Shown: in pieces, positions 14,445 to 49,259 of the stretch
How the letters are laid out: each line of letters begins with the position of its first letter
How positions within the stretch are numbered: position 1 is the first letter of the stretch
NCBI GenBank assembly: GCA_032718475.1
Contig: JAUCBJ010000121.1
Span: forward strand, 1 to 64,000
Reading direction: 5' to 3'
From: Nemertoderma westbladi
Lineage: Eukaryota > Animalia > Xenacoelomorpha
Length of the DNA: 64,000 bases
The notes under the pieces: generated by a model
Databases searched by the model: none
Told to the model about the DNA's origin: nothing
Seen by the model: the letters and a program-made list of their open reading frames with translations, nothing else
Program-made: the position numbers and the translations under genes

Positions 14445-14500
14445 TCAGAGCTGCCGCCCTAGCTAACTAAACTCAGCGACCAATCTAGAGATAAAGAGAG

Positions 14501-19396: not shown

Positions 19397-19437
<41 letters not shown>

Positions 19438-19450
19438 CTTACTACCTAAC
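17930..19450 (-). repeat. TAG-rich low-complexity 3' UTR of B containing small-hairpin arrays
   Basis: (ctaa/ctact)n matrix with repeated ggcac-cctat-gtgcc, gtgcc-c-ggcac and about 13 ggtac-nnn-gtacc units. Confidence 0.85.
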
Positions 19451-19490
19451 TTCTACCTACTCTATTATTTAATTATTTTCTTATTTTTAA

Positions 19491-22400: not shown

Positions 22401-23139
22401 CGACCGACGAGACCGAATCCTCGGAGTTAACCTCGGATTCGCCCTCCCCAGGTCTCTCCCAACCCATTAACTTAAATTCCCTGGCATCGACTAAGTATGG
22501 CCCTATGTACACTACACCAGGCCCCATACCCCTACGTTCCCATAGCCCAAACAGTTCGAAGGCAACCCCTCTCGCTCTCTCCCTGGCCAGTTCTCCCTGC
22601 CCAGAACGCACTAGGTGATCAAAGTATCTGTTCGACTCACCTAGTCGTCTCCCCAGTCTCACCTCGTCTATCTTCGCCCCTCCTTTGGCCTCTCTCAGTT
22701 GCTCCCGGGTCGCGAGGTAGGCCCGTCGAAGTCGATCAGAAACCCCGACGTCCTCGTCGCCGACCTCTCCTCCATCTCTCCGGGTCCGACGTCGTACCGA
22801 CGGCCCCACCGTCGCCGTTCCGGTGGACCGTTCGTCGTCCTCGGCCTGTGGCTGACCGGTGACATCGGTACGTCGACCATCGCTCCGCGTCGACTCGTCT
22901 TTCTCTTCTCCTCCCGACTCGTCTCCTCTACTCGACTCGCTCTCTCCTGGTAGACGACCCCCCACATCTTGGTTCGCCGGGTTGCTCGTTGTCGACGTGG
23001 CGTCAACCTGCGTCGACGTGGTCGGCGTATCATCGACCGGCGTCGTGGGTTCGTATCGTCTCGCCGTGGCCTCGCGGATCGTTAGATCGTCGTCCGGGGT
23101 CCGCGGCGGTGTCGTTCCTTTCTCTCCTATTCGGCTCAT
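19491..23139 (-). pseudogene. gag: Element B Gag-like reading frame (N-terminal extension plus zinc knuckles, capsid deleted), two frameshifts
   Basis: ORFs 21277-23199, 20612-21382 and 19491-20636 align to A. PLDE joins QSIPHAAIQGTASPQL, skipping the capsid domain. CQLH...HKTRSC and CHRCVVKGHRSGEC are retained. Confidence 0.75.
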
Positions 23140-23190
23140 CTTTGTCTTTGGTGTCAGTCTATCACTGTCAGGGCAGCTGGGCGGATCTGA

Positions 23191-23199
23191 TTCTGTCAC
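23191..23199 (-). promoter_or_regulatory. Non-tRNA primer-binding site of B (sense GTGACAGAA), complementary to LTR 23379-23387
   Basis: Abuts the 5' LTR end at 23200; exact complement of sense TTCTGTCAC inside the LTR. Confidence 0.7.
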
Positions 23200-23730
23200 T
23201 GTGACGAGATCTACGGATCCCGGTTTATCCGTTGGGTTTTCTATCCACGCGTCCCCGCCGTATGTGAAAGGTAAAATAGTTCTGGTGTCCGGTTATATGT
23301 ATAAGGTATAATAGTCTGATATATATGTAATATAGTATGACACAACAGGTAATATAAGTATGATGGCGGTAGCGGACGGTGACAGAAGTCCCCGTTCCAC
23401 CCTACTGATCTGACTGAGTAAACTGAATGAATGATTACAGGTTACTGGTTATATTGCACGGTGGCCTTATTGCTACTCAATCGATGCCTTTCCCCCCTCT
23501 GATTGGTTGATACCCCTGTTGGCACCCTTTGGAGTGTTTCCCTTCACTCCCTGTGTTCTCTCTCGGTTAGGGGTTTGGCCCCTGACCCCTATTGTGTGTG
23601 TCTCCTTTGGGGCCTATTGTCCCCGTTTACTGGGCTGACACGAGGTTGATTGGTAATCAACCTCGTGCTCCCAATATTGCTTTATGGCTCACTCTATGGG
23701 TTAGTGTTAGCGGAATTGGATAAGCTAACA
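23200..23730 (-). repeat. 5' LTR of element B
   Basis: 531 bp, near-identical to 17007-17537, bounded by TSD AGCGG. Confidence 0.95.
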
Positions 23731-23735
23731 AGCGG

Positions 23736-24435
23736 GAATACTCCACTGAAAGGAGAAGAAGAGAAGACAGTAGTAGAAGTATCGCCGCGAACGATAGAAG
23801 AGCGAGGACGGATAGCGAGCCGTCGGTAGTCGAGATGAGAACAGAGAGTCAGTGGGGTCGGACTCCGGGAGATTGCCGTCGCCCCGGAGAGATGCGACCC
23901 GGCGAGGCGCACTACGCGCCGAGAGAGGGGTACGCGATGTACCGGTACGAAGATGAGAACAGTAGAGGGGGGGGTCGAAGAGAAACTTTCCGACGAAATA
24001 TACCTACCGATCGAGAATACGGTAGCCGCGGGGAGGACTACTCGAGAAGAATAAACTTCGATCCCGAGCGACACATGCAGACTGTAGGACATACTATAGG
24101 CCTTACTGCACATACCATAGGCCATACTGAGAGAGGCAATATAGGCAATAGGATAGCGTGGACAACGGGATTAAACCCGGAAGTCGCGGAATACATACCG
24201 GCGAGTAGCCCAGAAGCTGATAGGCCTATACCGGTACCAGTACAGCAGTGTGACTACAGCATGCAGGGACATAACATATACCCAGGGGAGGGGGGAATTA
24301 TTGCGGATAGGTGTATGGGCCCCAATATATTAACATCAACCCCAGTACCAAACATACCGGTGGGGGGGACAGGGTGACATTCCCCCATCACAATATTAAC
24401 AATATACCCCGATAGGAGCAAGAACAACGAGACCC
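23736..24435 (+). pseudogene. gag: Continuation of the element A Gag N-terminal region after the B insertion
   Basis: ORF 23835-24377 (TTGLNPEVAEYIP, MGPNILTSTPVPNIP) matches the B ORFs; frameshift near the G run at ~24362. Confidence 0.75.
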
Positions 24436-27400
24436 TTGGATGAGAATAGGTCGTGTGATACAGACATATGGAGGGGGCCGCTACCCCCGATGACATACCC
24501 AAGTCAGAGAAAGTCAAGAAATAGGACAGACGGAACGCACCAGACAGGAGAAACTATACAGCATCCATCGAACCCATTGGAAGCACAGGCGATGGGGATG
24601 GCCACGTTGATCGATGCGTTGAAAACGAGGATCGAGCTACCACCCGTGGAACCATTCAAATTCGATGGGAGCAGGCCGGAAGAATATCTACAGTTTCGGC
24701 GCATGTATAGTAACGAAATACGAACAAAAAACTTGACACAGGCGGAGTGCCTAAAGTATCTGCAAGTGTACACGGCAGGCCCAGCATACGATATCGTGAG
24801 GCAATATCAAGGAATAGAGGGCGGCTTCACAACAGCATGGCGGGCACTGGATAGGGAATACGGGCACCCGGCCAAGATCATCAGGCAGACGCTGAGAGGC
24901 ATAACATCGGGTGGCCTACAGGATAATCCCGTTAGCATTAAGACGTTCGCTAACAAAGTCGAAAAGGCGCTAATCGTGCTGAAGACGCTAGACGCGCCGT
25001 ACGAGCTCAATGCGTCCAACAACATCACCACGATAGCGCAGGCACTACCAAACTGGCTGCGCAACAAGTGGGGGAAAATCGCCTTCTCCACTCGAGATAA
25101 GAAGGGTGCGGAACCGGGTTTAGAAGAAATGTCAAACTTCTTAAACTACGAGGCTGAACTAATAACTGACCCAGTCTATAGCGAAGATAGCCTGGGAAAG
25201 GGACCGAAGACAGACTACCATAGACCGAAACCAGAGCACAACACATCAAACGCATTACCGAGACTCAGGCAATCATTGCCATATGCAGCGACGCAGGGGA
25301 CTGCAAGTCCACAGCTAGCCGAGGATAAGACAACACCATGGAACGGACAGGGAAACAATAACAACACAAATAAACATAACCCCAGTACATCCAGTAGGCT
25401 GAATCCAAACAATAAGAATAGTAGGGACTTTGGTACAAACGCAACTGCGATACGCAATGCACTGTATAAAGAGGGCTACGACCCAAAGAGCAAATGCCAG
25501 CTACACGCAAATGCGCTTCATCAAACCATGAACTGCAGGTACTGGCAGGCGCTACCTAGGCAAGATCAGATAGATTATGCATTCAGCAATAAAATATGCT
25601 CGCGATGTGTAATGAGTGGACATAGAGCAAGGGAGTGCAAGGAGAAGCCAATAAAATTTGGTCAAAGGAGAGGCCAAATGATGGCGACGAGCACAGTAGG
25701 GGCGAAGAAGAGGGGAACGGTGTTACTTGGAGTAGTACCAGTGCGAGTGATCGGGGAAGGCAATCGATCAGTAATAACACTAATGCTGGTTGATAGTGGA
25801 GCTGCCTTCACATTAGTCGAGGAATGGGTGGCCGAGGAGATAGGATTGAGAACGAGGCCAAGCAGGATGGCGGTAACAACCATCTCTAGCAAAGATGAGA
25901 TCCTGGAGATGAGAACAGGACGGTGCGCAATTGCAGCAGTGGCACCAGGATGCGACTATGGGGCAACCATCGACCCCATCCAAGTGATAGAGTCAATTAA
26001 TATTAATGCCAGGCGACCAACCAAGATCGAGGTCGAGCAGTATAAATTCCTGGACGACATTGACTTCTCAATCCCAGACGTGGACGTTAGGAAGGTGTCC
26101 ATCATAGTAGGCATGGACTGCCCAACGGCCCACGAAAGAATACAAACGGTCTTCGGCGAAGACAAGCAGAGTGACCCGGTGGCCATATTAACACCATTCG
26201 GGTGGACGCTGAGTGGTCCAATCAAGAGTAAGATACCATTTAGGATGTCGGAGACATCAGGATGCATGTTCGCGGGAACAATGCAGGAAATGGGTGACGA
26301 GGGAGCAGAGGAGCAGCTTAAAAGACTGCTCAGACATGATTTCGAGGGACTGAAAGAAACCGGAGTCGGGACCTCAGTAGAAGACAAGCAGGCTTTACAA
26401 AGCGTGGAGGAACCGATGACATGCAATGAGGGGCGGTATACTATAGGAATGGTATGGAAACTACCGAAGATACCGCTGCCCGACAATAGGGGGATGGTAC
26501 TCACGAGACTCCGCAAACTGAAACAAACACTAAAATGGAGCCCCGAGAAGAATGAGTACATCCACATTACAATTAAGAAGTACGTCGAGAAAGGATGGGC
26601 CGTGGAGTTACCGGTCGACGAGCCGAACACGGATAGGACATATTACCTGCCACTACACATGGCTTTAGATCCAAAGAAAGGTAAACTACGGATGGTAGTC
26701 GACGCATCGGCAAAGACCGACGGAAAGTGCTTAAACGACTACCTGTTAGAAGGCCCAAACATATACAATTCAGGCATAGAGGTGTTACTTAGATTTAGAA
26801 ATGGGAAACACGCCTTCACGTGTGACATAGAAGGCATGTTCAACCAAGTCCGTGTAACGGAGGAAGATAGCGACAGTCAGCGCTTCTTATGGTATAACGG
26901 CGAGAAAGAACCGTCGATAATACCGGCATATAAGATGGTAGTACAGAACATGGGGGCCAAGTCGTCTTCATTTACGACGACTATGGCAGTGAGAGACACA
27001 GTAAAGGGGAAGGAAGATAGATACAGCAGTAGGGCCGTCGATATGATTCGACGCGGCTTCTACGTAGACGACGGAATGGAGTCTGGAAATACGGTTAAGG
27101 AGATACTGGATACAGGGCGCGAGGTTCGCGACATCCTAAAGGGATCCGGCTTTAACCTGACCAAATTCCAATCCAGTTCGGAAGAATTTATCAAGGCCAT
27201 AGAGGACAGGAGACCAGAATCGACCATGGATAATCCCACAACAGCCAAAGGGCAGGACATGGCGATTAAGAGAACAGAATCTCAACAGAAGGCATTGGGA
27301 ATCGTGTGGGATAGAGAGACAGACGAACTGAAGTATCAGCTGAGCCAAGAGGGTGCAGACATCCACACGAAGAGGGGCTATGTATCGTATATAGCAAGGA

Positions 27401-28122
27401 TATACGATCCCCTAGGCCTAGCATCCCCATTATTAGTCACAGGGAAACAGATACTCAAGAGAGTATACAAACTGAAGGATGAGTGGGACGTAGAGGTACC
27501 AGAGGAAATCAAGAAACAGTGGAGCAAGTGGACAGGAGACTTGGAGAAGATGGGAACATACAACATGCCACGGGTGTATTTCCCGGATGGGAACATGACG
27601 AATCTGGACCTACACATGTTCTCCGACGCGTCGTTGGAAGCGTACGGAGCGGCACTCTACTTAGTACAACGAGAGGGGGCTCATAAGCCAAGACTAGCCT
27701 TTAGCAAAGCAAAGTCAACGCCACCAGATTCAGCATCAGTTCCTAAGTTAGAATTGACAGCCGCGAGACTAGGAGTAAGAGCCACAGCCTACCTAGTGGA
27801 TACTATTCCCAACATAGTGGAGACACACTACTGGACGGACTCCATGGTAGTGCTTGGCTGGCTACACAACGAAAGGACGAGATACCCGATATTCGTCGCG
27901 AATAGAGTTGACGAAATAAGGGCGAGTACAGAACTGGAAAGGTGGCACTACTGCCCAACAGACGATAACCCAGCGGACTTGTTGTCGAGGGGCGTGGTAC
28001 GCCACACTTTCTTGAAGAAGGAAGTATTGTGGCAACATGGGCCACAATTTCTGAGCGATAAAGAGGCCTGGCCGCCGATGAGAAAGGTGGACCCGGGCTC
28101 AGAAGTAGTATCAGAAGGATAA
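24436..28122 (+). CDS. gag-pol: BEL/Pao Gag capsid, zinc knuckles, aspartic protease, reverse transcriptase and RNase H
   Basis: LPPVEPFKFDGS; CSRCVMSGHRAREC; LVDSGA; YYLPLH, KLRMVVDAS, CLNDYLLEGP, DIEGMFNQV, GFYVDD; LHMFSDASLEAYG, VPKLELTAA, WTDSMVVLGW, NPADLLSRG. Confidence 0.95.
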   Translation: MDENRSCDTDIWRGPLPPMTYPSQRKSRNRTDGTHQTGETIQHPSNPLEAQAMGMATLIDALKTRIELPPVEPFKFDGSRPEEYLQFRRMYSNEIRTKNLTQAECLKYLQVYTAGPAYDIVRQYQGIEGGFTTAWRALDREYGHPAKIIRQTLRGITSGGLQDNPVSIKTFANKVEKALIVLKTLDAPYELNASNNITTIAQALPNWLRNKWGKIAFSTRDKKGAEPGLEEMSNFLNYEAELITDPVYSEDSLGKGPKTDYHRPKPEHNTSNALPRLRQSLPYAATQGTASPQLAEDKTTPWNGQGNNNNTNKHNPSTSSRLNPNNKNSRDFGTNATAIRNALYKEGYDPKSKCQLHANALHQTMNCRYWQALPRQDQIDYAFSNKICSRCVMSGHRARECKEKPIKFGQRRGQMMATSTVGAKKRGTVLLGVVPVRVIGEGNRSVITLMLVDSGAAFTLVEEWVAEEIGLRTRPSRMAVTTISSKDEILEMRTGRCAIAAVAPGCDYGATIDPIQVIESININARRPTKIEVEQYKFLDDIDFSIPDVDVRKVSIIVGMDCPTAHERIQTVFGEDKQSDPVAILTPFGWTLSGPIKSKIPFRMSETSGCMFAGTMQEMGDEGAEEQLKRLLRHDFEGLKETGVGTSVEDKQALQSVEEPMTCNEGRYTIGMVWKLPKIPLPDNRGMVLTRLRKLKQTLKWSPEKNEYIHITIKKYVEKGWAVELPVDEPNTDRTYYLPLHMALDPKKGKLRMVVDASAKTDGKCLNDYLLEGPNIYNSGIEVLLRFRNGKHAFTCDIEGMFNQVRVTEEDSDSQRFLWYNGEKEPSIIPAYKMVVQNMGAKSSSFTTTMAVRDTVKGKEDRYSSRAVDMIRRGFYVDDGMESGNTVKEILDTGREVRDILKGSGFNLTKFQSSSEEFIKAIEDRRPESTMDNPTTAKGQDMAIKRTESQQKALGIVWDRETDELKYQLSQEGADIHTKRGYVSYIARIYDPLGLASPLLVTGKQILKRVYKLKDEWDVEVPEEIKKQWSKWTGDLEKMGTYNMPRVYFPDGNMTNLDLHMFSDASLEAYGAALYLVQREGAHKPRLAFSKAKSTPPDSASVPKLELTAARLGVRATAYLVDTIPNIVETHYWTDSMVVLGWLHNERTRYPIFVANRVDEIRASTELERWHYCPTDDNPADLLSRGVVRHTFLKKEVLWQHGPQFLSDKEAWPPMRKVDPGSEVVSEG

Positions 28123-29700
28123 GAGGGAGATTCAGAGGGAGAAGATATATACTCCCAGATGGTGAGGGAGATTAGGGACGTGCAACCAGGACGGGAACTG
28201 TGCGATAACCCGACGGATAAACTCCTCAGCTACAGTTCTAGTTGGTATAAGACCAAGAAACTAGTGGCGTACTGGAGAGCCTTCGGCAATTTCCTTGCGG
28301 GAGTTGGCAAGGACAAGAAGATCAGGACAACCATAGATCTGGAAGGAGCGGCCAAGGCAGTGATCCGCTATGAACAACGGAAGAACTATGGCAACGAGGT
28401 GGAACGCATCGGTAACCAACAGCACCTCCGACAGGACAGCGAGCTGATTACGCTGTCGCCACAACTCAATGACGACAGGATTCTAGTAATGCATTCTAGG
28501 GTGGGATACAACAACAGCATAGTCGTACCACCGAAACCCATCATCATTCCTACAGGATCGCCAATAGTCCACCAGATTATATGGGACTCCCACAAATCGA
28601 TATTGCATGGGGGCACCAACCGAACCCTCACAGAGATAAGGAGGACCTATTGGGTCAAACAACTGAGGAAGAAGGTAAAAGCGGTAGTGGGGCAGTGCCA
28701 GACCTGCCGACGAGCGAAGAAGGAGCGAGCCGTACAGGAGATGGCGCCACTACCGGCGAGTAGGGTAAGACAGCACGACCCGCCATTTACGCATTGCGGT
28801 GTGGACATGTTCGGGCCGATAAAGATCAAAGTGATGCGACACACGGAGAAACGCTACGGCATTATCTTCATATGCAACAACACGCAGGCGGTAGGGATAG
28901 AACTCGCCCAAGATGCAACCGCATCAGCGTTCATTAACGCCTTAGAAAGGTTTAGGGACCGCAAAGGTGGGACGATCGCAGTGATATACAGCGACAACGG
29001 CACCAACTTTGTGGGCACAGAGAGTGAGATGGCAGAGGCCTTGGACATCTTGGAGGGAGAAGAAGTCAGGGCAGCCATGAGGCGACGACAAGTAAAGTGG
29101 GAGAGAAGGACACCGTATGCACCACATACACTAGGGTGCGTCGAGAGACTGGTGGGCAGTTCAAAGCGTCTAATGACGAAGCTAATGAACACCCACATGG
29201 TCACTGAGGACGTCTTACGGACAGTACTTGCGAAGTGCGAGGGGATCATTAATAGCAGACCGCTATATCCGGAGAATGATGACCCTGAGTCATTAGACGT
29301 GCTGACGCCTAGCCATTTCCTGATGGAAAGGCCAGCGACCATCGATATGCGGGGTGTAGACCCAGATGACATACACTCCCGCCAAAGTTGGAAAGTCGCT
29401 AAAGCAATAAGCGCAGAGTATTGGAGGAGGTGGGTCGACGAATACCTACCCACACTCCATAAACGAAGCAAGTGGAGGAAGTCAAACAGGGAGTTAAGAG
29501 AGGGAGATCTCGTAATCGTTACGGATGATACTATCATCAACAACCAATGGCGGTTGGCGAGAGTTGTAGGCACCTACTCCGACGAGGACGGAAGAGTCCG
29601 ATCGGTAGAAGTGCGGATAGGTGGAAAGATAGGTGCGAAGGACAGAAAAACCTACAGGAGAGCTGTAGGCAAATGCTGTCTGTTAGAAGGGGCAACTTAG
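28123..29700 (+). CDS. pol: BEL/Pao integrase, same frame as the upstream ORF and separated by one TAA at 28120-28122
   Basis: HHCC zinc motif (H-KSIL-HGG...CQTC); DDE core GVDMFGP, YSDNGTNF, GCVERLV; C-terminal WRRWVDEYLPTL, WRLARV. Confidence 0.93.
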   Translation, partial: EGDSEGEDIYSQMVREIRDVQPGRELCDNPTDKLLSYSSSWYKTKKLVAYWRAFGNFLAGVGKDKKIRTTIDLEGAAKAVIRYEQRKNYGNEVERIGNQQHLRQDSELITLSPQLNDDRILVMHSRVGYNNSIVVPPKPIIIPTGSPIVHQIIWDSHKSILHGGTNRTLTEIRRTYWVKQLRKKVKAVVGQCQTCRRAKKERAVQEMAPLPASRVRQHDPPFTHCGVDMFGPIKIKVMRHTEKRYGIIFICNNTQAVGIELAQDATASAFINALERFRDRKGGTIAVIYSDNGTNFVGTESEMAEALDILEGEEVRAAMRRRQVKWERRTPYAPHTLGCVERLVGSSKRLMTKLMNTHMVTEDVLRTVLAKCEGIINSRPLYPENDDPESLDVLTPSHFLMERPATIDMRGVDPDDIHSRQSWKVAKAISAEYWRRWVDEYLPTLHKRSKWRKSNRELREGDLVIVTDDTIINNQWRLARVVGTYSDEDGRVRSVEVRIGGKIGAKDRKTYRRAVGKCCLLEGAT

Positions 29701-29816: not shown

Positions 29817-30625
29817 TAGGTACGCAGTTAGTAGGCAGAAGTTAGTTAAGAGGTACGTAGTACCTAGTTAGTTAGTTAGTTAGTTAGAGGGTACGTAGTA
29901 CCGCCAGTCAGAGAGTTAGTTAGAAGGTACGTAGTACCTAGTTAGTTAGTTAGTTAGAGGGTACGTAGTACCGCCAGTTAGAGAGTTAGTTAGAAGGTAC
30001 GTAGTACCTAGTTAGTTAGTTAGTTAGAGGGTACGTAGTACCGCCAGTCAGAGAGTTAGTTAGAAGGTACGTAGTACCTAGTTAGTTAGTTAGTTAGTTA
30101 GTTAGAGGGTACGTAGTACCGCCAGTTAGAGAGTTAGTTAGAAGGTACGTAGTACCTAGTTAGTTAGTTAGTTAGAGGGTACGTAGTACCGCCAGTTAAA
30201 GAGTTAGTTAGAAGGTACGTAGTACCTAGTTAGTTAGAGGGTACGTAGTACCGCTAGTTAGTTAGAGTTAGAGGGTACGTAGTACCGCTAGTTAGTTAGA
30301 GAGTTAGAGGGTACATAAGTACCGTTAGTTAGTTAGAGAGTTAGAGGGTACGTAAGTACCGCTAGTTAGTTAGAGAGTTAGAGGGTACGTAAGTACCGTT
30401 AGTTAGTTAGAGAGTTAGAGGGTACGTAAGTACCGCTAGTTAGTTAGAGTTAGAGGGTACGTAGTACCGTTAGTTAGTTAGAGAGTTAGGGGGTACGTAG
30501 TACCGTTAGTTAGAGAAGAGTTAGAGGGTACGTAGTACCGTTAGTTAGAGAAGAGTTAGAGGGTACGTAGTACTGTTAGTTAGTTAGAATTAGAGTTAGA
30601 GGGTACGTAGTACCGTTAGTTAGAA
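29817..30625 (+). repeat. Array of ~22 GGTAC-GTA-GTACC palindromes embedded in (TTAG)n
   Basis: Directly visible tandem array between pol and the third ORF. Confidence 0.92.
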
Positions 30626-31113: not shown

Positions 31114-33660
31114 ATGGCGAGTAAGTTGATCAGAAAGAGAAAAGCGGAGTCAGGAGGAAAGGAGATACTGGTGGATTTCACCGAGAGGCATCCGGAAGAG
31201 AAGACGAGAGGATACTACGAGAGGTTGGAAAGGGGTCACGCGGCGCGAGCGCTGCAGGATCACTTCAGGGAGATGCACGAACAGCGGCTGGTCGGGACCT
31301 ACGGGACGCCGTCGCTGGACAACGCGATCTTCCAACACTTCCACTACGTGGTGAAAGGGGACGAGGCGAAGTTCGGGATTCCGAAGTACCCGAGGGAATC
31401 ACCGAGGAAGGACTGGAAAAGATTCATAGAGTCCGTCAACAGAGGAGGATATATGATCCTAGACGACGAGGGAACCGTGGAAGACGAGGCGGGTTCGAGA
31501 CGAGGAACGGCGGGGTCGGCCAGGACCATACTCCTACATTTGGCCGCGCCAAATGGGGACATCTTCTTGTTCGACCTAGGGACGTATGGGAAGAAGGACG
31601 GGCCGAAATTAAACCGGTTACCGAAAGCGGTACAAGTTTTGGTAAGAGAGAAGTCGACGACGAAAGTGGGATCGGCGATTCGCAAGGATTCGGAGAGAAT
31701 CATCGGTCCGGACGCCACCAACCTCCTGGATATGCAGAAGGTCTTTATGGCTATGACGGCACCGGATGGGTTGGGGGTAGTCGAAAACACAGGCCAATGC
31801 GGGGCGGTGGCAATGGGCCAGCTATTGGGGCTCGTATGCCACAAACCGATGGATTGGGGGAAGTTTAGGGAAGAATACGGAGCAGAACTAGAGAACTCGC
31901 TAAAGTGGGGAGCGAGACCAGGAAAGCAGGAGGTATATCAATTCCGCAGGGGAGCGATAAAGGTATATCAGAAGCGATATATCCTGCAGGAGGACTGGAT
32001 GATGATAAGTTTGCTTAACTTATTCATGACCGTGGTTATCGAGAGGGAACCAGGGGCATTTCTGTTATCGGGATCACCCCTAAGCTACAGGAGAGCCTTT
32101 AAGACGGCCTTTGACGGTCTGGTAGACCACCCGGGGCTGAAGGGCGAGTCGGTGTACTACAACAGCCGACATATGGTAGACGGGGAGACAGATACACCGT
32201 ATCAGAGATGGGAGCAGCTAGAGACGGATAGACGAGAAGCAAAGCGACTGGAAGAAGTCGCTAGACGGGAGAGGATAGAAGCAGAGGAGAGGGAAGAGGA
32301 GGCCAGGACACAGAGTTACGGCTTCGAGGAACAGGCAGGCCTAGACGAACTTCATTGGACTTCATCAGGGAGTTCGGGGGAGTCTCTAGGGCGAGAATTG
32401 GGATGGACGGTGGGATCGCCGAAACAGTCGACGTCGGGGTTGCAAACGATGCCCATACCAGCGGGCGCCGAGGGCGACCAACCGCCAAGGAAGTTAAGGG
32501 AGCTAGAGGGATGGAGAGCTACGGGCGAGAGCCAAGGCGGGAAGGGACATAGTGTATCCATCGGGATACCGGGGTTGGAGACACTGCCAGAAGAGGAGGA
32601 CAACGACGACGAGTTCGGAGAGATGCCGCCCATCGAGAGGATAGGCCACTCGGACACGGACTGGGTTGGCGGAAGGGTGGTGACGGCCAGTTGGGCGAGG
32701 GCCTTCTGGAACAGATCCGGCAAGCGGACCTGGGTGCACGAGGACCCGGCGATGGATTTCGCGGGGAGCACTATCAGGTTGGGCGAGCAACCGGGGATGG
32801 CACCACGGATAGTATTCGGGGAGACGATGCCCGAGAGGGGCGGAGAGATCGACGTAGATAGAGAGACCAACGTAGAGAAGTTCGCCTACCAGCGACTCCA
32901 CAAACCGCGGAGATCGCTTGGGACGAAAGACGAGGTGGGACGGGAGACATTGGTACTCGGCTGCGACTACTGTGGGAGACAGACCCATCGGGAAAGGAGC
33001 TGCCTATACCGGTTCCAGAAGGGAACCTTTTGTCTCTACTGCCGAGAACCAAGCCACAGGATGGGGGCGTGTCCACAGTTGCATAACCGATGTCCAAAGT
33101 GCCACTTTCGGGGACACTATGGACGCAAATGCGACTGGATGAACGACGAGGAGAAGTTCACGAGATTCGAGGAGTGGGCCGACGTCGAGGCCATGACGCG
33201 CCAGCGCATGAAGGCCCAGGAGTTCAAGTGGGGTTTCTTCCTTATCAATCAGGAGACTCACATGGAGATCATAAAGCGGAGGCTACCGTTTACCTACCAA
33301 GAGTTAGCAACGGCGGCGTCGTACGCCGGAGTGATGAACACGCAAAGATATTTGGACAGGTGGACGCCAGAGAACCGAAGGGAGTTTAGGGATTTCTTGG
33401 CGGAGCACGTACCACAAGCAATGAAGATGATCCTATGGGACGCCACTAGAGGGAGACAACCGGGCCACTCTGAGGGGCCACCGGCGAAGCGATATCGGGC
33501 ACTAATAACACCAGCGCCCAGGGAGCCAACGACCGGGATCAGCAGGGAGGTGGCGGCGAAGGTCCGAAAGCAGAAAGCGGATCCCAGAGGAACGGTGGTA
33601 ACCAAGAAACGACCCAGGGAAGAGGACGCCAGGGGGAACTATCCCCAGAGGAACAGATAG
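31114..33660 (+). CDS. 848-aa accessory protein: DEDDy 3'-5' exonuclease-like domain (RNase D/WRN/EXD/Mut-7 type) plus three CCHC zinc knuckles
   Basis: Uninterrupted ATG ORF with ExoI ILDDEG, LLHLAAP..IFLFDL, LPKAVQVLVR..TKVGSAIRKD (ExoII), LLDMQ, LLGLVCHK, ExoIII-like QKRYILQED; knuckles CDYCGRQTHRERSC, CLYCREPSHRMGAC, CPKCHFRGHYGRKC. Confidence 0.8.
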   Translation: MASKLIRKRKAESGGKEILVDFTERHPEEKTRGYYERLERGHAARALQDHFREMHEQRLVGTYGTPSLDNAIFQHFHYVVKGDEAKFGIPKYPRESPRKDWKRFIESVNRGGYMILDDEGTVEDEAGSRRGTAGSARTILLHLAAPNGDIFLFDLGTYGKKDGPKLNRLPKAVQVLVREKSTTKVGSAIRKDSERIIGPDATNLLDMQKVFMAMTAPDGLGVVENTGQCGAVAMGQLLGLVCHKPMDWGKFREEYGAELENSLKWGARPGKQEVYQFRRGAIKVYQKRYILQEDWMMISLLNLFMTVVIEREPGAFLLSGSPLSYRRAFKTAFDGLVDHPGLKGESVYYNSRHMVDGETDTPYQRWEQLETDRREAKRLEEVARRERIEAEEREEEARTQSYGFEEQAGLDELHWTSSGSSGESLGRELGWTVGSPKQSTSGLQTMPIPAGAEGDQPPRKLRELEGWRATGESQGGKGHSVSIGIPGLETLPEEEDNDDEFGEMPPIERIGHSDTDWVGGRVVTASWARAFWNRSGKRTWVHEDPAMDFAGSTIRLGEQPGMAPRIVFGETMPERGGEIDVDRETNVEKFAYQRLHKPRRSLGTKDEVGRETLVLGCDYCGRQTHRERSCLYRFQKGTFCLYCREPSHRMGACPQLHNRCPKCHFRGHYGRKCDWMNDEEKFTRFEEWADVEAMTRQRMKAQEFKWGFFLINQETHMEIIKRRLPFTYQELATAASYAGVMNTQRYLDRWTPENRREFRDFLAEHVPQAMKMILWDATRGRQPGHSEGPPAKRYRALITPAPREPTTGISREVAAKVRKQKADPRGTVVTKKRPREEDARGNYPQRNR

Positions 33661-34331: not shown

Positions 34332-34369
34332 ATGCTATCTTCTTACCGGGAAGATAGCATGGGGGGGAG
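34332..34369 (+). promoter_or_regulatory. 11-bp hairpin followed by the polypurine tract of element A
   Basis: atgctatcttc-ttaccgg-gaagatagcat then gggggggag abutting the 3' LTR; same module in B at 17538-17574. Confidence 0.85.
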
Positions 34370-34883
34370 TGTTAGCTTATTCAATCCCGCTAACACCCCA
34401 TAAAGTTAAGCCGATAAGCAATATTGGGAGCCACGAGATTGGGTAATTAACCAACTCGTGCCATCCCAATAAGAATGGGAAGGAGAAGCACACAATGAGG
34501 GTCAGGGGCCAAACCCCTAACCCAGAGAGAATAGGTGGAGTGAACGGGAACACTCCAAAGGGCGCCAACAAGGGTATCAACCAATCAGAGGGGGGAAAGG
34601 CATCGATTAGGTAGAGTAACAAGGACAACCGTGCAATATAGCCACTTGGCAGTAATCATATCAATTCAGTTATCTCAGTGCAATACTGGTGCTAGTTTAG
34701 GTTACATAGTTTAGCTAGGGAAGGACCGGGACTTTAGTTACCGTATCCCGCCTTCCGTATACAACAACTATATTATCTCATATCTATATCTATATCTGTA
34801 TACCCAAATATTATATACGACGAACAGCACAAACTCATTCACTCTTTATACACGGCGGGGACGCGTGAACTAACAACGGATAA
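34370..34883 (+). repeat. 3' LTR of element A, lacking its last 28 bp
   Basis: Matches 13894-14407 and then diverges; no TSD recoverable. Confidence 0.92.
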
Positions 34884-35982
34884 GTTTATTACTAACAACG
34901 GATAGGTTTATTACAACTTTAATTAAATGCATACTTACTGACACTTAGGCTTCTTTCAGCAATGTACCCATAAGCTATCATGACGCTGATCTTCTAGTGT
35001 GCCGTACATGCTGCTGCACAAACAACAACGATTTCCTTTGGACGGCTTTCTTTTTAAAGGTTTTTGGACATTCGATGGTGAGTAGTTAAGTGATCGCCGT
35101 ACCCCACATGATCTATCTTTATCGATCTCAGCCACGAGTTTTCCTAGTGAAGCACTCACCTCCTAGATTTGGACATAATAATTTTAATATTTTCATATAT
35201 ATAAACTTAGTTATAACGAACGCAGTCTTACATTTTAGTAAATTAGGCATAAAAATAGTATTATTATTGTACCTCAGTTATTATGTTCCTTGTTATTGGG
35301 CTATCTGGGATGGGCCCTTTATGATGATGGGATGTTTGTCCTAAACGATAAATAACGTTAGATGGAATAGATAATTGAAACTGTATTGCAGACTTGGCTA
35401 TCGCTTGTTAAGTGTTAACTAATTTTTAATCAAACCTGATATGCGAGCCTTTTTTTAAGGATAGAGGTAAAAGATAAGTAATTTATATAAACTTAGTCAC
35501 AATATTTATTTACTACATTAACTTTACTTTTATTCGCTAGGGTAGTACCGAATGTGTGAGTTAGTAGTTATGTAATCATATTAGGCCTAAATGTAATCAT
35601 ATGTGCGTACGGTACTGTAGGGCCTGTTATGAAATAAAATCTATAAATTAAAGTACTTTATGTTACGTTTGTTATTTTAGTTCCCCCTTAACGCAGCCTG
35701 AGCGGATGGGTCACGTAGTCATTAACAGCGGATGGGTCAGAAAATGACCAAGCTATAAATTTTACTATATTCAATTAGAATTAATATGAAAAGTTGGTTA
35801 AGGAGCCGCCAACGAGGCCTTGAGGTCTAGTTCTGCACAATACGAAACAGTATATGAGTACAGTACAGCATATACAGCAGATGATACTATGTATACTTAC
35901 GAAGTTAGCTGTACTGGCCTACTGACGTACTACTGCTTAGGCCTATATAAATATTGGAATACTTAAAAGCATCTTATTTACA

Positions 35983-37681
35983 ATGACGCATCCACAGAAT
36001 ATTAATGTCGCAAATGATGAAAACGATCACAGTATTATTGCTAGTATTATTTCATCAACGGATGACCCTGAAATAAAGAATTGTTTAAGCTGCTGGTCCC
36101 AGGAGGAGACAGGAACTACAATCACCAAAAAACTTAACAAATGTCCAACCAGCCAACTTCGCAAGACAGCCCTTTACATGGGATGTGAAAGGGCGAATGA
36201 CAACCTCTATAAGGCGCAATTAGTAGTTGAGGTTGTTAAATCAATTGAACGTTTCCTACCTGAGGAATGCGCGAACTGTGGGGCTGACTACTCATGCGAG
36301 TTTGGAGAGAAAACCGCTATTCAATGTTTTATTTGTCAACGAGGTGTTCACAGTGGTTGTGTCACTGATCCAACGCAAACAGAAGAATATAAAGCACTAA
36401 CGTCGGCCCACGGATTTGTCTGGGTATGCCTCTATTGCCAACAACGGGCCATAGCTGGCAAAGCAATTATTCGCAATAAAGAAGGCAAATCCATTGCCGG
36501 TATTCGTAAGCGTCAAATTCTAGGCGCAGTGGCTACGACTGAAGGAGTACCGGTACCGTTGTCAGAACAAATGAGGGTTAAGGAACTGCAAACGAGAAGT
36601 CCAACTGTCAATGGGCCAAGTCAGTTCGAGAGTGATAACTGCATTCTCACCATTACAAACACCGCTACTGGTAGAGACAACACTGATAGTGTTGTACAAC
36701 CAATTCACCGTCAGTACCAGTATATGGATTCGACCAACCAAACTCAAGTTAGTCGACTACAAAACCGCTTTGATATACTGGACGGTGAAGATGATGATGT
36801 TGTCGATTTAGGTTCTGTACATTATGAAAGAGGATGAATGGGTAAATCCCAACAGTACTGTTGGTAGAGAGACATCACCGGTATCACACAACCACAATAA
36901 ATCGGAACCTCATTCTACAAACAGCAGCAATGAAAATAGACCTGTCTGTCGGTTCTTTCGCAATGGGAACTGCCAGTTTGGCCGATCGGGACGAGGCTGT
37001 TCATATCGACATCCAAAACTTTGTCTTAAATTCTTAAACAAAGGAAAATCAAGCCAAGGTGGCTGCACTAAGGGGACGTCCTGTAGGTACTTTCATCCCA
37101 CACTGTGCCGCAATTCTGTCAACGAAAAACAATGCCTTAATGGCTAATGTAACTTCTACCATATCCGTGGCACTCAACGTGTCAAGAGGCTGCAGGAAAA
37201 TCGCGTGGAAGACAGATATAATATCAGGGAACAAAGTGTTGGGCTACAAGGGAATAACATAGTCTCCCGGAGCTACACCAAGTCGAACCTCCCTCCTCAT
37301 AGAGAAATCGACCAACCAAACACCAATGGTCAAATCCAGCAGCGTAACGTGGAATGCTATCGCTATGGTGAAGCTCAGACTTTGCAGACCACGGATCAGA
37401 GTTCTTTTTTAGAGAACGCCATGGCGGAAATGCAGAACTCGTTTACTATGCAAATGTCTCAGATGCAGGATCAAATATTGGGTATGCAGCGCCAGTTCTC
37501 TCACCAACTTCAGCAGTTGGTGCAGCTACAGCCCCAGGCAGCTGCATCCCCACCTCAAACCCAAACACAATACTATACTCAGCAACCGAGTGTCCACAAC
37601 ACACAACAAATGCAAGGTTTTGCCCAGTCGGGCCAGGTTCATATAGTACCGGTATCCAACCCAACCCAAATTATGGTGTGA
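35983..37681 (+). pseudogene. LINE ORF1 with PHD finger, three CCCH fingers and Gln-rich tail (one frameshift, one stop)
   Basis: CANC...CFICQRGVHSGC...WVCLYC; CRFFRNGNCQFGRSGRGCSYRH, CLKF...GCTKGTSCRYFH, CRNS...CLNG*CNFYH. Confidence 0.8.
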
Positions 37682-37965: not shown

Positions 37966-38162
37966 TGTACAGTGTTGATCTAAGTTACCCTTAAGTGATA
38001 TTATATACTTATATATATGTAGGCCTACAGGCCTATGGAAAGTCAAGTATTCAATATATATAACATAAGTACTTCTGTACTTTGTCATCTGGCAATCCCA
38101 TATTTTCATACACAGCAGTCTGGCAGTATATCTACTGCCTACTGGTACTTCAGTACTTTACA
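37966..38162 (+). repeat. Gypsy 5' LTR
   Basis: Identical by eye to 43450-43646. Confidence 0.95.
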
Positions 38163-38417: not shown

Positions 38418-39998
38418 ATGACGGATACCGGCACCGGTACTACAGCTACATCTATTACAGCAGCCAAATATTCGCGATCAGCCTTCAAGGGACGTGTTAC
38501 TACAGCAATGAGACGCCTTGAGGACTCGCTACAAAAATATACCACCATGGACCATGAACAATTAACGCCATTAATAATTGAAGCAGTAACAAGCCGATTA
38601 ACAGATTTTCAAATGGCTGCAAACAAATATTTCGAAGCACACCACAATGTCCAGGTGTTAGAACCTACAAAGGATGGTGACAAAGAAACATTATATGTGA
38701 ATTCACTGGAAGATAATGTTGTAGAATTCCGCGACCGGGTTCAATAATTAAGTTACCGGTACTCAAGTACTTTGAACATTTTAAATCATTCTCAGGTTAG
38801 TGATGTTAATACTAATGGTAGGCCTGCTGATCCAGTAGCTACCGGTACACATATTAAAAATCCACGCATAGATCGAACCTGTCAGCCAGATCGTCTGAAC
38901 AAAGACGTTTCTATCGCAGACTACAATACATGGAAAATTAATTTCCTCCAATTTTTCCGCATAAATGCGATGCAACACATGGAGCATGATTACCAAATTG
39001 CTCAACTTCAAGCATGTATTTCTCCAGAATTACAAACTACAAGTCGTCTGTCCCTTAATGTCACACCACAACATACTGTTGATGAAATTCTGGACATTCT
39101 CCATGAATATTACAAAAAAAAATGTAGTTGGATTCGCAGATGTGTCGAATTCAACAGTTGTCATCAGGTCGCTGGTGAACCATTTAATGATTTTTTTGTT
39201 CGCCTGCGTGGCCTGCAAGAATTAACTGAACCATGCCACAGATGTATAGACCGCAACTTAATGGTCCAAATATGTCAAGGTGTCATAAACATTGAACTCC
39301 AACGGAAATTATTTGCTTTACAAATGGGGCACCCTACCTTAGATGACGTTAGAAATGAATGTATTGCATTTGAACACGGTGACCATGAATCAAATGTTTC
39401 CAAACAACCAAACCGTGATCAATTAATACACAATATACAAACAATTTCGTCCCCAGATGGGGCTGTTGAAATACCGGTACCACAATATACATTTACTATT
39501 GATGAAATTCGAGAAACAATGTTAAATAGTAAAGGTACTGATTCTGATATAATTCATGCACTTCAAGTTTTAAAAACGCAACAACTTCCAGCACGGTCAA
39601 AGAAAACTTACCCTATTTATAGGGGTAAAGGCAATACACAAACCCAATCTACATTCTCAAAAAGTACTTCATCAAAAAGCCGGAATTGCCCTTGGTGTGG
39701 TGGACCATCACCACATGAAAATAATAGACAAAACTGTCCAGCCAGTGGGAAATTATGTGTCAATTGTGGGAGAAAGGGACACTTTTCATTTGCTTGTAAA
39801 GCAAACCCAGCTATGCAATCTTTTCAACAACGACAAATTAATCAAATTGAATATAATAAACAATGCGATGAAGGGGATGATGACAGTGACCAATCATCCT
39901 ATGTTTATCGTGCTGGCGTTAATATTAATGTGATTTCAGATGAAGTTCATATTACTCAAATTAAATTTTCACATTCTGCACCATTGATTTCGAATTAA
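38418..39998 (+). pseudogene. gag: Gypsy gag with one in-frame TAA at 38745-38747
   Basis: ORFs 38418-38747 and 38772-39998 share a frame; HQVAGEPFNDFFVRLR, CPWCGGPSPHENNRQNC, CVNCGRKGHFSFAC. Confidence 0.85.
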
Positions 39999-42900
39999 TG
40001 TATGTGGAACACAAAATAATGCCATTTTTGTTTGTGACTCACTTCCAGATACTGGTGCAGATGCCCCAATCGTACCATATGGTCTAATAAAAGACAATGA
40101 TTTAATAATGGAGATTAAAAAATCTCACAAGCCGAAGGTATTTGCTGCAAACGGTACTGTAATCCAATCCATTGGTATCATAACTTTAAAATTACATTAC
40201 TATGGACATAAGGCTATAATCAATGCAGTGGTTACTGAAACAGCATCTACCTTTTTGCTACCCTGGTTTACCCTGAAACAATTAAAAATCATACCAGAAT
40301 GTTTTCCCCTTCCATATATATTTCCAAAAGACAGCAGGGATCTTTATGTCCAAGAAGTATCATCAGCTAATAATGTGCGATCAACATTATTAGATGAATA
40401 TTCTGATGTCTTTGATACTGAACAGTTCCAGGCTATGGACATAACTCCAATGAAAATACACCTTAAACAAAATGCAATTCCATCTAAGATATATACTGCA
40501 AGAAAAATCCCTGTTCATCTAGAGGCAGACACAAAGGCAGAATTAGAAAATATGACCAAACTAGGAGTAATTAAAAAATTAGAATCTGATGCTGAACCCC
40601 CAGAATGGATTTCTCCAATGGTGGTTATACAAAAACCACGAGGTGGGATTCGAATATGTGTGGACTACACTGCTCTAAATCAATACATAGAACGCCCGGT
40701 ACATCCATTTAAGTGTCCTGCTGATATCGTTGCAAATTTAAATAATGGGTGTCACTTTTTCTCAACTTTAGATGCAGTAAAAGGATACTGGCAAGTTCCT
40801 CTTGAATTCAATAGCCAAAAATATACAACATTCCTAACTCCATGGGGTTGCTATGTTTTTCTTCGAGCCCCAATGGGCCTTAGTTCAACTGGTGATGTAT
40901 ATTGTATATGGGGAGATACAGCAATATCTGGAATCCCTTCAGTAGAAAAAGTTGTAGATGATATGCTGGTTCATACAGTTACATTTGAAGAACATGTGAC
41001 TGTTGTGAGATCCATACTAGACCGATGTAGACAATACAAGATTACATTGTCAAAAGATAAATTTATCTTCGCCCAGCCAGAAGTGGAATTTATTGGAATG
41101 CGCATCGGGCGAAATGGTATTCATGGTGATCCATTAAAGATGGAAGCTATTAGAGAATTCCCAATACCAAAAGACATTTCCATGTTGAAATCTTTTTTTG
41201 GTATTATTACACAACTTCAAATGTTTACACCAAATCTGGCTCAGATATCTGCACCATTACGTGGTTTGTTGAGCCCTAAGAATGCATTTGTATGGACCCA
41301 TGATCATACACAAGCTTTCAATGCAACCAAAAATTTACTTACTTGTTTACCGGCCCTTCAACCATTCGATAAAACATTACCAATTTCACTACACACAGAT
41401 GCCTCTAAAGATGGTATTGGATATGTACTCATGCAAAAACATGACAGCAATTGGTGTATAGTAACCTGTGGAAGCCGTTTTGTCACTCCCACAGAGTCGA
41501 ATTGGGCTGTCATTGAACGTGAGCTGTTAGCTGTTCAATGGGCAGTAACGAAATGCAGAGTATATTTACAAGGTTGCCCAAATTTTTCTGTTAACACAGA
41601 TCATAAACCTCTAATCACCATATTAAATAGTAAAACATTGGACAAAATAGGTAATTTACGACTTCAGAGAATCAAAGAAAAGCTTATTGGATATAACTTT
41701 ACTGCTATATGGATACCGGGTAAGAATAATGGCTTTGCCGATGCTCTATCTAGAGCACCTGTATCTCAACCTGATAAAGAGGATATAGATCAAGTAAATG
41801 AGATCATCACTCAAGTAAACGAAGTCATTACAGTAAATTCTAATGATATTGACCCATCGCACACTCTATTTACGAAAGCTGTTAGTGAAGATACCGAATA
41901 TAAACTCCTTATTTCTCATATTATTTCTGGATGTTACAAGATACCTCAAGAGTTAATTATGTTCAAAAACATAATTAAAGACCTTTCAATATGTAATGAG
42001 CTAATCTTGTATGGAGATCGTATTGTTGTACCAAAAAAGGCCAGAAATGAGGTTCTGCGTCGATTACATGTACCACATCAAGGAATTCGTCGATCCAAAG
42101 AAAGAGCCCGCCGATTATATTATTGGCCAGGAATGAATAGTGATATAACCAACACTGTTGAGAACTGTCATAATTGTCAAAAATATAGACCCAGTCAGGC
42201 ACCAGAACCAATGACTCTTGATGTTAATCCGACTCGACCATTTGAAAATGTCTCGACTGACCTTTGTAGCTATGGAAATAATATATATCTCATATATGTG
42301 GACCGTTTTTCTGGATGGCCAATAGTTATTTTGTTCAATAAACCTCCAACAACATCCCAAATAACTTCAAAACTAATCGATCTGTTTTGTGATACAGGCG
42401 TTCCTGTGAAAATGCGATCAGATGGTGGATCACAATATGCTTCAGCAGAGTTCAATACTTTTTGCAACAATTGGCATATAGACCACACCCTTAGTAGTGC
42501 ATATTATCCCCAATCTAATGGTCATGCCGAAGCTGGAATAAAATCAATGAAATCTTTAATTAAAAAATATACTTCAACTAATGGCCAATTAAATCATGAA
42601 GGATTCAAAGAAGCAATATTAGAGTGGAGAAATACTCCCCGTGATGGTGATACTCCAGCTCCTTCAGTACTACTATATGGAAGACTAATGCGCACTCGTC
42701 TCCCTGCAAGCAAAGAAGCCTTGGACTTTCAGTGGAATAAAGTATTTGACGAAATTGATAGAAAAGTAGTGGATAAAAAACGTTGGGTGACAAAATCAAG
42801 ATACGACTTACACACACATCCACTCAAACCTCTCTCCATAGGCACCTCTGTATTTGTTCAGGATGTCAGGACAAAGTTATGGGATCGAGTAGGTCGAATA

Positions 42901-43131
42901 ACTGATATAAGAGATAATGGTCATAGTTATTACGTTGCATTTCCATCTGGTCGTATCCTGCTGAGAAATAGGCGTTTTTTACGCCCAGAACCTTTGATAA
43001 ATAGCAATATAAATGATAGTGATAATAAATACAAAGAAATGGCTTCAGATACTGTAATTGTAGATCTACCCCTTCGGCGAAGCATCAGAGCAAAACAGTT
43101 ACCAAACCGATATGGACAATTGATTAAGTAA
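39990..43131 (+). CDS. pol: Gypsy pol: protease, RT, RNase H, integrase
   Basis: LPDTGAD just upstream of the called ATG; WISPMVVIQK, IRICVDY, LDAVKGYWQ, VVDD; TDAS; HVPHQG...CHNC; SDGG, PQSNGHAE. Confidence 0.93.
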
Positions 43132-43449: not shown

Positions 43450-43646
43450 TGTACAGTGTTGATCTAAGTTACCCTTAAGTGATATTATATACTTATATAT
43501 ATGTAGGCCTACAGGCCTATGGAAAGTCAAGTATTCAATATATATAACATAAGTACTTCTGTACTTTGTCATCTGGCAATCCCATATTTTCATACACAGC
43601 AGTCTGGCAGTATATCTACTGCCTACTGGTACTTCAGTACTTTACA
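43450..43646 (+). repeat. Gypsy 3' LTR
   Basis: Follows the PPT and is followed by TSD GTAAT. Confidence 0.95.
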
Positions 43647-43759
43647 GTAATACTTATACTACTACTAATAGTAGTAACCAAAAAGGGCTCAGTGATGGCA
43701 ATTTTTCTAGCTACACGAATTGTTATCAAAATAATATTAATCAACATTTTATTGTACTA

Positions 43760-44450
43760 AATATCCAAGGGCTACATTTTCAAGGCCAGCCATCTAAAGT
43801 ACCACATATTCAGGACTTGGCTAGTTCTTCTCCCCAATTTATTGCCCTAACCGAAACCCATTTAAATAGAAAGTTTTTGGATGCTGAATTAAAAGTACCA
43901 GGCTATACCTTAGTTAGGGCTGACAGGGATTCTAGAGCCAAAGGAGGTGCCGGTATATATATAAATGATAATATTGTTTTCACAATAATCGAAAAATACT
44001 CAAATACTGTTTGTGAATTCTTGGCTGTTCATTTTCAGTGTAGTGATACCTTAGTATTTGTAGTATATCGGCCTTCCTGTGAATTAAAATTATTTAAGGA
44101 GTGTTTAAATAGGGTTGAAAATATTATTGAATGCGAAAATTTCAATAATAGTAGACTCCTAATCTCTGGGGACTTTAATTTTCCCAACATTTCTGGGGAC
44201 AGGGACACTTTTTCATCTCACTCTCCAATAGCCTCTATAAATTATCAGGGCAATGCATTGCTTGGATTAATGTCACGCTGGTTTATGACCCAGGTCGTTG
44301 ACAAACCAACCCGCTTGAACAGTACCATCGATCTACTTATTACCAACGATTTAGACTACATAGACAAAGTAAATGTGTATGGTACCAATTATTCAGACCA
44401 CAATGTTGTACAAATTTTCACGAGTAAAATAGAAGCAAACACACAACAAG
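43760..44450 (+). pseudogene. LINE ORF2 apurinic endonuclease domain
   Basis: NIQGL, IALTETHL, RADR...KGGAGIYI, VVYRP, ISGDFNFP, PTR..STIDL, SDH. Confidence 0.9.
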
Positions 44451-44454
44451 TTAT

Positions 44455-44865
44455 GCAGTGAAATCTGCAGTTAAATCTCATCTCCGTGTGCAATGTAAAA
44501 ATAGGTACAATAGTCCTACAGTAAGTTATTAGTTTATTAATTATTTACTATTTATACTGTAATTACGTTTTATAATAAATTGTTCTGTACATTACATCTT
44601 TATCGTTGAGTCGGGCATTGTCACGCTCTCGGTAAAGTTGTACATGTACATAGTGTAATTACGTTTTATATTGGTTTTAGGTTAGCGTAGTGTAATATTG
44701 TACTGTATTTGTAACCAAGTGACATAAAGGACCCCCTTGGAAATAAGCTGCAAAGCTTTAGGGGTAATCCTATATATGTTATGTTTGACAATACCTTTAT
44801 ACCGGTACATTGTTTGGTGTATTTGTTATTGTTTTTACATAATGTATAAATAAATCTATATCTAA
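44455..44865 (+). mobile_element. Inserted non-coding fragment, probably the 3' UTR of another LINE or a SINE
   Basis: AT-rich block interrupting ORF2; contains a stem-loop-like ggacccccttggaaataagctg-caaagctttaggggtaatcc and ends in aataaa plus tctatatcta. Confidence 0.5.
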
Positions 44866-44892
44866 CAAAATATAGAACGCAATAACGTACCG

Positions 44893-49231: not shown

Positions 49232-49259
49232 CAGGGGACCATGTTCCTTTTAGGAATGG

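Follow-up and report, generated by a model that had tools for sequence, protein, structure and literature searches.

BEL/Pao retrotransposons are among the most abundant long terminal repeat (LTR) elements in animals. For the corresponding family, Belpaoviridae, only gag, pol and env are listed as genes, and replication is primed by a tRNA (PMC8742986). In bdelloid rotifers, third open reading frames (ORF3s) coding for DEDDy exonucleases have been reported from the LTR elements Juno and Vesta and from Athena/Terminon elements (Rodriguez et al. 2017, PMC5408684). Here we describe a DEDDy-type ORF3 in a BEL/Pao retrotransposon of Nemertoderma westbladi, designated element A. It lies in a window of 64 kb (contig JAUCBJ010000121.1, positions 1 to 64,000, forward strand), to which all coordinates refer. 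ORF3 (31114–33660, + strand) proved to be an accessory gene that many BEL/Pao retrotransposons have carried for a long time; it is real, selected and family-wide.

According to the accessible text of the rotifer report, the genes described there resemble the BEL/Pao ORF3 in that each is a separate third frame after pol, in the position of env, of DEDDy type and without a membrane segment. They differ in their hosts, which are Juno/Vesta LTR and Penelope-like elements rather than BEL/Pao, and in their motif, DEED. That text does not describe a triple zinc knuckle or a helical domain, and the BEL/Pao set has in addition a large catalytically dead clade. Our search of the open-access literature, with subscription papers, Repbase and GyDB outside its scope, found no exonuclease ORF in a BEL/Pao element, and the word “exonuclease” is absent from the accessible parts of PMC3118150, PMC554778 and PMC2774666. 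A preliminary description of this DNA had mentioned an RNase D-like domain in a nematode BEL-type element; the same search did not find this nematode Cer precedent. Exonuclease ORF3s are already known as a kind, and what is added here is the BEL/Pao version with its pseudo-nuclease clade.

The 848 codons of ORF3 run without a stop, as the preliminary description had stated, and lie between the integrase and the 3′ LTR. Its motif positions could also be confirmed, namely D117-x-E119 at 31462–31470, KVG..IRKD at 31663–31689, Y289..ED at 31978–31995, and the knuckles. The predicted catalytic residues are D117 and E119, D192 (31687–31689), Y289 (31978–31980) and E293 (31990–31992). They belong to a DEDDy-type 3′-5′ exonuclease domain of approximately residues 61–353 (31294–32172), which is followed by a long predicted helix (residues 362–409) and a predicted disordered acidic linker (residues 410–609, predicted local distance difference test score (pLDDT) below 50; helix and linker together 32197–32940). 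Three CX2CX4HX4C zinc knuckles (32962–33003, 33031–33072 and 33091–33132) and a conserved helical domain without a named family (33142–33447) come next, all on the + strand. The third motif had been read as an ExoIII-like Y..QED. Its tyrosine, Y289, is present; the acid in register with the homologues and with EXD2 is E293 (YxxxE) and not an aspartate, and the motif set is D-E-D-y-E.

A chance match to these motifs was ruled out. From 27 exonuclease domains, whose loci had been selected for the zinc motif, we made a profile that excludes the window's row; it matches ORF3 residues 102–305 with an E value of 3e-19, against a best value of 0.002 in 500 shuffles. The gene is also not an env gene: as claimed beforehand it has no transmembrane segment, the highest hydropathy over 19 residues being 1.3, and its N-terminus is basic rather than hydrophobic. 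The named rows of a viral fold search with the ORF3 model were all exonucleases or polymerases, with no env among them. Finally, we rejected a copy of the Gag nucleocapsid, as there was no match to the element's own gag below an E value of 4.

The assignment of the N-terminal domain to the DnaQ/DEDDy type is supported by profile and by predicted fold. AlphaFold2, run on a 48-row alignment, predicted a confident exonuclease core (pLDDT 74–93 in most blocks) and knuckle domain with the disordered linker between them. The preliminary description had made a DnaQ-like fold a test of its proposal; the predicted fold is DnaQ-like, and so are all of the top 20 structural rows. Superposition on Nibbler gave a Z score of 14.2 (root-mean-square deviation 3.7, 204 aligned residues, DnaQ-like alpha/beta fold), followed among cellular proteins by WRN (13.3), RNase D (13.1), Trypanosoma brucei RNase D (TbRND, 12.9), Egalitarian (12.2) and Exd1 (11.8). 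The proofreading domains of apPol and Klenow polymerase scored 14.0 and 12.1. Foldseek ranked TbRND first, and the ESM Atlas returned unnamed clusters at 0.94–0.95 and another cluster, at 0.94, with PF01612 on 34% of its members. One homologue, P0011, matches PF01612 at 6e-5. Pfam gave no useful match for ORF3, for 45 related ORFs (one unrelated weak match) or for 46 exonuclease stretches. Single-sequence folding was uninformative (pLDDT 31), and neither a single-sequence search of the PDB nor word-based homologue searches with the protein or its alignment found a match. For the knuckle-plus-helix C-terminal domain no solved relative was found by profile (best E value 0.67), and its Atlas leads were all below 0.9. 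An Rrp6/RNase D protein with an HRDC domain was ruled out, since Pfam gave no HRDC match and the Rrp6 and RNase D alignments stop near residue 353.

By profile, the closest solved structure is human EXD2 (PDB 6K17). It came first with a 23-row profile (2.9e-11), ahead of trypanosome RNase D, Egalitarian (2e-4) and WRN (0.055), and was the sole significant match of a 28-row exonuclease-only profile (7.2e-11). This match takes in the helix that precedes ExoI as well as that of ExoIII. The single EXD2 chain gave a Z score of only 8.5, which fits the domain-swapped dimer described for EXD2 (PMC6648332). Unlike EXD2 and its orthologues, ORF3 has no N-terminal membrane anchor within the hydropathy limit given above; the knuckles replace the C-terminal region, and identity in the structural match is 19%. 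TbRND (PDB 7C42) shares with ORF3 the order of a DEDDy exonuclease followed by CCHC knuckles. It is however a cellular protein with four knuckles and a short linker, whereas in ORF3 helix and disorder take up about 250 residues before the three knuckles, and there is an extra helical domain. The likeness in architecture is likely convergent.

To find relatives we used a degenerate knuckle motif that has a single occurrence in the window and none in 100 shuffles. With 26 of 64 parts scanned, this returned 120 metagenome loci (L numbers below), out of an estimated total of about 300, and the flanks of 80 were analysed. BEL pol or integrase lies upstream on the same strand at 30 of the 33 loci with at least 5 kb of upstream sequence; of the three exceptions one is decayed, one has only gag and one is a chance match in bacterial DNA. 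Forty of the 80 loci have such an upstream match and none matched the gypsy or LINE (long interspersed nuclear element) proteins of the window, copia, DIRS and Penelope not being among the queries. PF05380 or PF18701 was matched by all 34 pol stretches from 33 related loci. An exonuclease domain is present at 56 of 59 loci with 1.5 kb upstream, ORF3 is flanked by LTR copies at L013 and L023, and element size is near 10 kb at many loci. The gene is present in dozens of BEL/Pao families with conserved place and architecture. A one-off or recent capture by a single element was not borne out, as the gene is old and co-inherited with pol in many families.

Divergence within the family is deep. The 65 exonuclease domains recovered form 63 groups at 90% identity and 42 at 50%, and the nearest relative of the window's domain among them is only 24% identical. 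Among 1.84 billion representatives, 50 matched the protein; these matches are driven by the knuckle region, and 22 of them also have the N-terminal domain. We found no ORF3 relatives in viral contigs, and none of 20 homologues looked up carried an informative name.

Several loci depart from the common layout. L047 (3341–6529) and L059 (6880–9648) retain the knuckle-helix domain without an exonuclease match and branch within the main ORF3 clade, adjoining the dead clade. The ORF3 frames of L005, L051, L043, L015 and L037 have 1277–1592 codons with long low-complexity N-terminal parts; there may be a second reading frame overlapping those of L005 and L051. L022 holds an ORF3 remnant without pol and with a gag-like frame upstream, possibly a non-autonomous element retaining ORF3, and L012 a decayed remnant without pol. 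L071 was discarded as an ORF3 locus because this match, on a contig of bacterial origin, is due to chance.

Conservation of the acidic residues had been posed as a further test. All four catalytic acids are kept in 38 of the 65 domains (26 D-E-D-Y-D, 5 D-E-D-Y-E, 4 D-E-D-H-D and 3 D-E-E-Y-D), and at least one is missing in 27, the columns being read from an alignment at 10–25% identity. In the columns of D117, E119 and D192, the ExoI and ExoII residues of DEDDy enzymes, 42, 42 and 37 domains have D, E and D, respectively. In the ExoIII motif the window's ORF3 keeps the tyrosine and has Glu in place of Asp, a variant that occurs with otherwise intact motifs in 5 of the 65 domains. Since the four acids persist in 38 of 65 domains across very deep splits, catalysis is under selection in most lineages. 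At the other extreme, 21 domains retain at most one acid. The dead domains form one starred clade of 17 rows, which is mirrored in the reverse transcriptase (RT) and integrase trees, and pol looks intact in the elements that carry them. Among 17 hand-picked close pairs, which are not independent, dN/dS was 0.09–0.19 in seven intact pairs and 0.04–0.47 in eight dead pairs, seven of these at or below 0.28, while two pairs were saturated. Purifying selection thus acts on both the active-site-intact and the dead exonuclease domains.

Selection can also be followed within the window's own family. In contigs of two runs, each of the 30 bins into which pol, ORF3 and LTR were divided is covered, and the short variant pieces number tens of thousands, which indicates that the family has many copies with ORF3. 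The preliminary description had asked whether the ORF is present in other copies, and this end-to-end cover answers that it is, although no variant piece joins ORF3 to pol and some copies have deletions in ORF3. Of 40 variants listed for the exonuclease stretch (26 more are unlisted), 32 are synonymous, where 33% would be expected for transitions (p = 2e-9), and none of the eight replacements falls on a catalytic residue. These results bear on whether ORF3 could be a neutral passenger captured from the host. The deletion copies would suit such an origin, as would element B, a relative nested in element A that moved recently without ORF3. B is however also without pol, place and architecture are conserved in dozens of families, and the excess of synonymous variants and the low dN/dS of the intact pairs leave the passenger explanation largely refuted and hardly credible.

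The exonuclease has diverged together with pol. Exonuclease and RT tree distances correlate with rho 0.87 (24 elements; one conflicting supported split), and exonuclease and integrase distances with rho 0.83 (29 elements; no conflicts), with 0 of 2000 permutations as high in either case; these are quick LG+G4 trees from which partial rows were excluded. When 120 database relatives are included in an RT-RNase H tree, most of the elements with ORF3 fall in one starred clade, and the window's element and the pair L010/L079 are placed outside it. A single clade of all ORF3-bearing elements gave a borderline p of 0.0506 in the approximately unbiased test (46 of 146 rows; 13 versus 33 rows). Because this test is borderline, ORF3 may have been gained once long ago and then lost repeatedly, or may have been exchanged among lineages. 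The named pol relatives come from fish, cnidarians, barnacles, molluscs and insects, all at 38% identity or less.

The preliminary description had suggested proofreading, and the fold is indeed common to the proofreading domains of polymerases; furthermore, the DEDDy domain of Dada DNA transposons has been proposed to act in the processing of DNA ends (PMC3706591). Nevertheless, ORF3 is a separate ORF that is not fused to RT, EXD2 is closest to it by sequence profile, versions that are dead or have no exonuclease persist, and the elements are of ordinary size. The maintenance of the dead clade under selection in particular weakens this suggestion, and we regard proofreading or trimming of cDNA ends during reverse transcription as improbable.

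The same clade would fit a protein that binds RNA. Nibbler/Mut-7, Exd1 and Egalitarian show the same fold and the same division into active and pseudo-nucleases as the ORF3 family, although they are host genes with a weak sequence-profile match or none (Egalitarian is found by the 23-row profile and is absent from the 28-row results). ORF3 might serve chiefly as an RNA adaptor for localising or packaging the RNA of the element, for instance into germ cells, in the manner of the pseudo-nuclease Egalitarian, with catalysis secondary. Purifying selection on the dead domains fits such a role, as do the long helix with its disordered linker, the env-position gene and, among the fold matches, Egalitarian bound to localisation signals, that of the I factor included. 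Against it stand the 38 domains that keep their four acids across very deep splits, and no motor-adaptor region was recognised by Pfam. We consider an adaptor role unlikely, though far from negligible.

We tentatively favor a role close to the counter-silencing that the preliminary description had also proposed, in which ORF3 is a counter-defence protein that trims or binds RNA 3′ ends and acts against host silencing of the element. It would be made from a separate message, spliced or internally started. In the product, a predicted EXD2-like 3′-5′ exonuclease would be tethered to RNA-binding zinc knuckles that grip single-stranded RNA and deliver it to the active domain, much as trypanosome RNase D does. 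Its targets would be small-RNA precursors that lack methylation, or short tails that host enzymes add to element RNA. With an intact active site the protein would trim RNA 3′ ends that serve host silencing, and the dead versions could sequester the same ends or host partners. We rank this role first because binding-only versions are selected while most lineages keep catalysis, and because the structural kin act on small RNAs or RNA tails: Nibbler, Mut-7 and Exd1 function in small-RNA pathways, and uridylation takes part in transposon restriction. EXD2 cuts RNA, not DNA, in Mg2+ (PMC6648332), and the knuckles of TbRND raise RNA binding and cleavage (PMC7797062). For this role RNA binding would count for more than cutting, given the 21 domains with at most one acid, the selected dead clade and the exonuclease-less L047 and L059. 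BEL/Pao replication, in its published description (PMC8742986), does not require the gene, and its fast divergence is expected of a host-facing protein.

Several points weigh against counter-defence. The activity of the window's own protein is unsure because the ExoIII aspartate is replaced by glutamate. Fast divergence and the dead clade would also fit an RNA adaptor, and the agreeing exonuclease and pol trees and low dN/dS are unlike a rapid arms race at these distances. In rotifers, Rodriguez et al. (2017, PMC5408684) found no clear link between DEDDy ORF3s and copy number. Moreover, the loci were chosen by their zinc motif, which biases any claim that the knuckles are the constant part. 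A more specific scenario, which we hold to be doubtful when taken as a whole, is that a widespread BEL/Pao group long ago took an EXD2-type nuclease as its own suppressor of silencing by PIWI-interacting or small interfering RNAs, acting on small-RNA 3′ ends; that one lineage repeated the switch from enzyme to pseudoenzyme seen in Exd1 and Egalitarian; and that the window's lineage swapped tRNA priming for self-priming.

Element A itself is a BEL/Pao (Belpaoviridae) LTR retrotransposon, with gag and a pol in the order protease, RT, RNase H, integrase between its LTRs and with the BEL-specific domains PF05380 (E value 2e-40), PF03564 (2.8e-11) and PF18701 (1.7e-24). On the + strand it consists of a 5′ LTR of 542 nt with TG...CA ends (13894–14435); a gag region in pieces, broken up by element B (14495–24377); the gag C-terminus, protease, RT and RNase H (24400–28122; PF03564, PF13650, PF00078 and PF05380), with an in-frame stop at the end; the integrase (28123–29700; PF17921, PF00665 and PF18701); a G/T-rich tandem-repeat array with units of 36–70 nt in the gap between pol and ORF3 (29832–30624), which is common to A and B; ORF3; a polypurine tract (34361–34369); and a 3′ LTR that misses its last 28 nt (34370–34883). 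The two LTRs differ at 3 of 515 aligned nt. The 3′ LTR ends early at a 22-nt tandem duplication (34869–34914), its missing end was found nowhere else in the window, and the target duplication of A is for this reason unreadable. The preliminary description had called the gene intact, which holds for ORF3; this copy of the element is damaged, with gag split by B and by frame breaks, a stop in pol before the integrase and the short 3′ LTR.

Element B (17007–23730, − strand) is a non-autonomous relative inserted in reverse in the gag of A. Its LTRs (23200–23730 and 17007–17537; 531 nt) have one difference and it has a 5-bp target duplication. It is approximately 65–85% identical to A over the aligned parts and contains a gag-like part only, without pol or ORF3, and retains the tandem array (18951–19409). 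Since B has no pol, it was probably mobilised in trans. Further arrays lie at 17954–18782, where ORF3 would be expected.

Neither A nor B has a tRNA-type TGG primer site after its 5′ LTR. Belpaoviridae are described with a primer-binding site of 18 nt that pairs with a tRNA of the host (PMC8742986); its absence is a priming deviation and not grounds to leave the family, which is defined by pol. Instead, the first 9 nt after the LTR of A, at the primer-binding position (14436–14444, + strand), are the exact reverse complement of a candidate self-primer site within the 5′ LTR (14257–14265, + strand). In B, 23387–23379 pairs with 23199–23191 at the same LTR place. The duplex is 9/9 nt in both, with three compensatory changes between the elements, against a chance background of 28 of 13195 (0.2%) and 8 of 5653 (0.14%) positions. 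The predicted pair probability is 0.8–0.9 in A and 0.5–0.6 in B only if the RNA starts no more than 3 nt from the site; with 30 extra nt it drops to about 0.2 and 0. In addition, a hairpin lies at the LTR end. In Tf1/sushi elements, too, the sequence just after the LTR pairs with an LTR site instead of a tRNA; those are Ty3/gypsy (some copia) elements with an 11-bp pairing, whereas A and B are BEL/Pao elements with 9 bp. The window's family is thus likely to be self-priming in a Tf1-like way, a mode that the literature surveyed does not describe for BEL/Pao.

A primer of this kind brings in the possibility that ORF3 processes the element's own RNA in replication. It might trim the primer, be it a tRNA or a self-primer, or the RNA in RNA-DNA intermediates. 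Trimming of structured RNA ends is known from enzymes of the RNase D type (PMC5408684), RNA-DNA hybrids are a substrate of EXD2 (PMC13425236), the 9-nt duplex of a family without a tRNA site needs a 3′ end to be made, and the co-divergence with RT is tight. However, a tRNA-type primer motif is found in 18 of 30 other loci, and many of the remaining 12 may lack the junction. Six of the 18 (L006, L013, L029, L046, L053 and L057) have an intact active site, so the nuclease is not tied to self-priming and the maturation of primers, proposed in the preliminary description, is weakened. Moreover, in Tf1 RNase H carries out self-priming unaided (PMC7175516), and the dead clade persists with an intact-looking pol. 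We regard processing of the element's own RNA as a doubtful explanation, though one to be taken seriously.

The window holds other repeats. A gypsy-type element (38748–43131), whose gag (416) and pol (1047) frames look intact, is flanked by a 197-nt direct repeat (37966–38162 and 43450–43646). It has apparently split a LINE with a PHD-like ORF and frames for an apurinic/apyrimidinic endonuclease and RT (35941–36837 and 43553–47131). Two more BEL/Pao fragments without an ORF3 match and a second LINE RT lie at 431–3099 (−), 57964–60071 (+) and 54183–56117 (−). Inverted repeats of 545 nt, 98% identical and 742 nt apart (47973–49804), mark a miniature inverted-repeat-like or other non-autonomous DNA element, with further copies of these ends at 12287–12458, 57781–58009 and 63068–63391. 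A satellite array with a 55-nt unit occupies 61051–63111.

A self-pairing primer site in BEL/Pao would extend self-priming to a third LTR superfamily. The function of retrotransposon exonucleases has been a standing question since the rotifer report, and ORF3, a conserved family of nucleases in which active, dead and deleted versions occur naturally, offers a test series for their role. If it is true that ORF3 suppresses small-RNA silencing, it would be a rare counter-defence enzyme encoded by a transposon.

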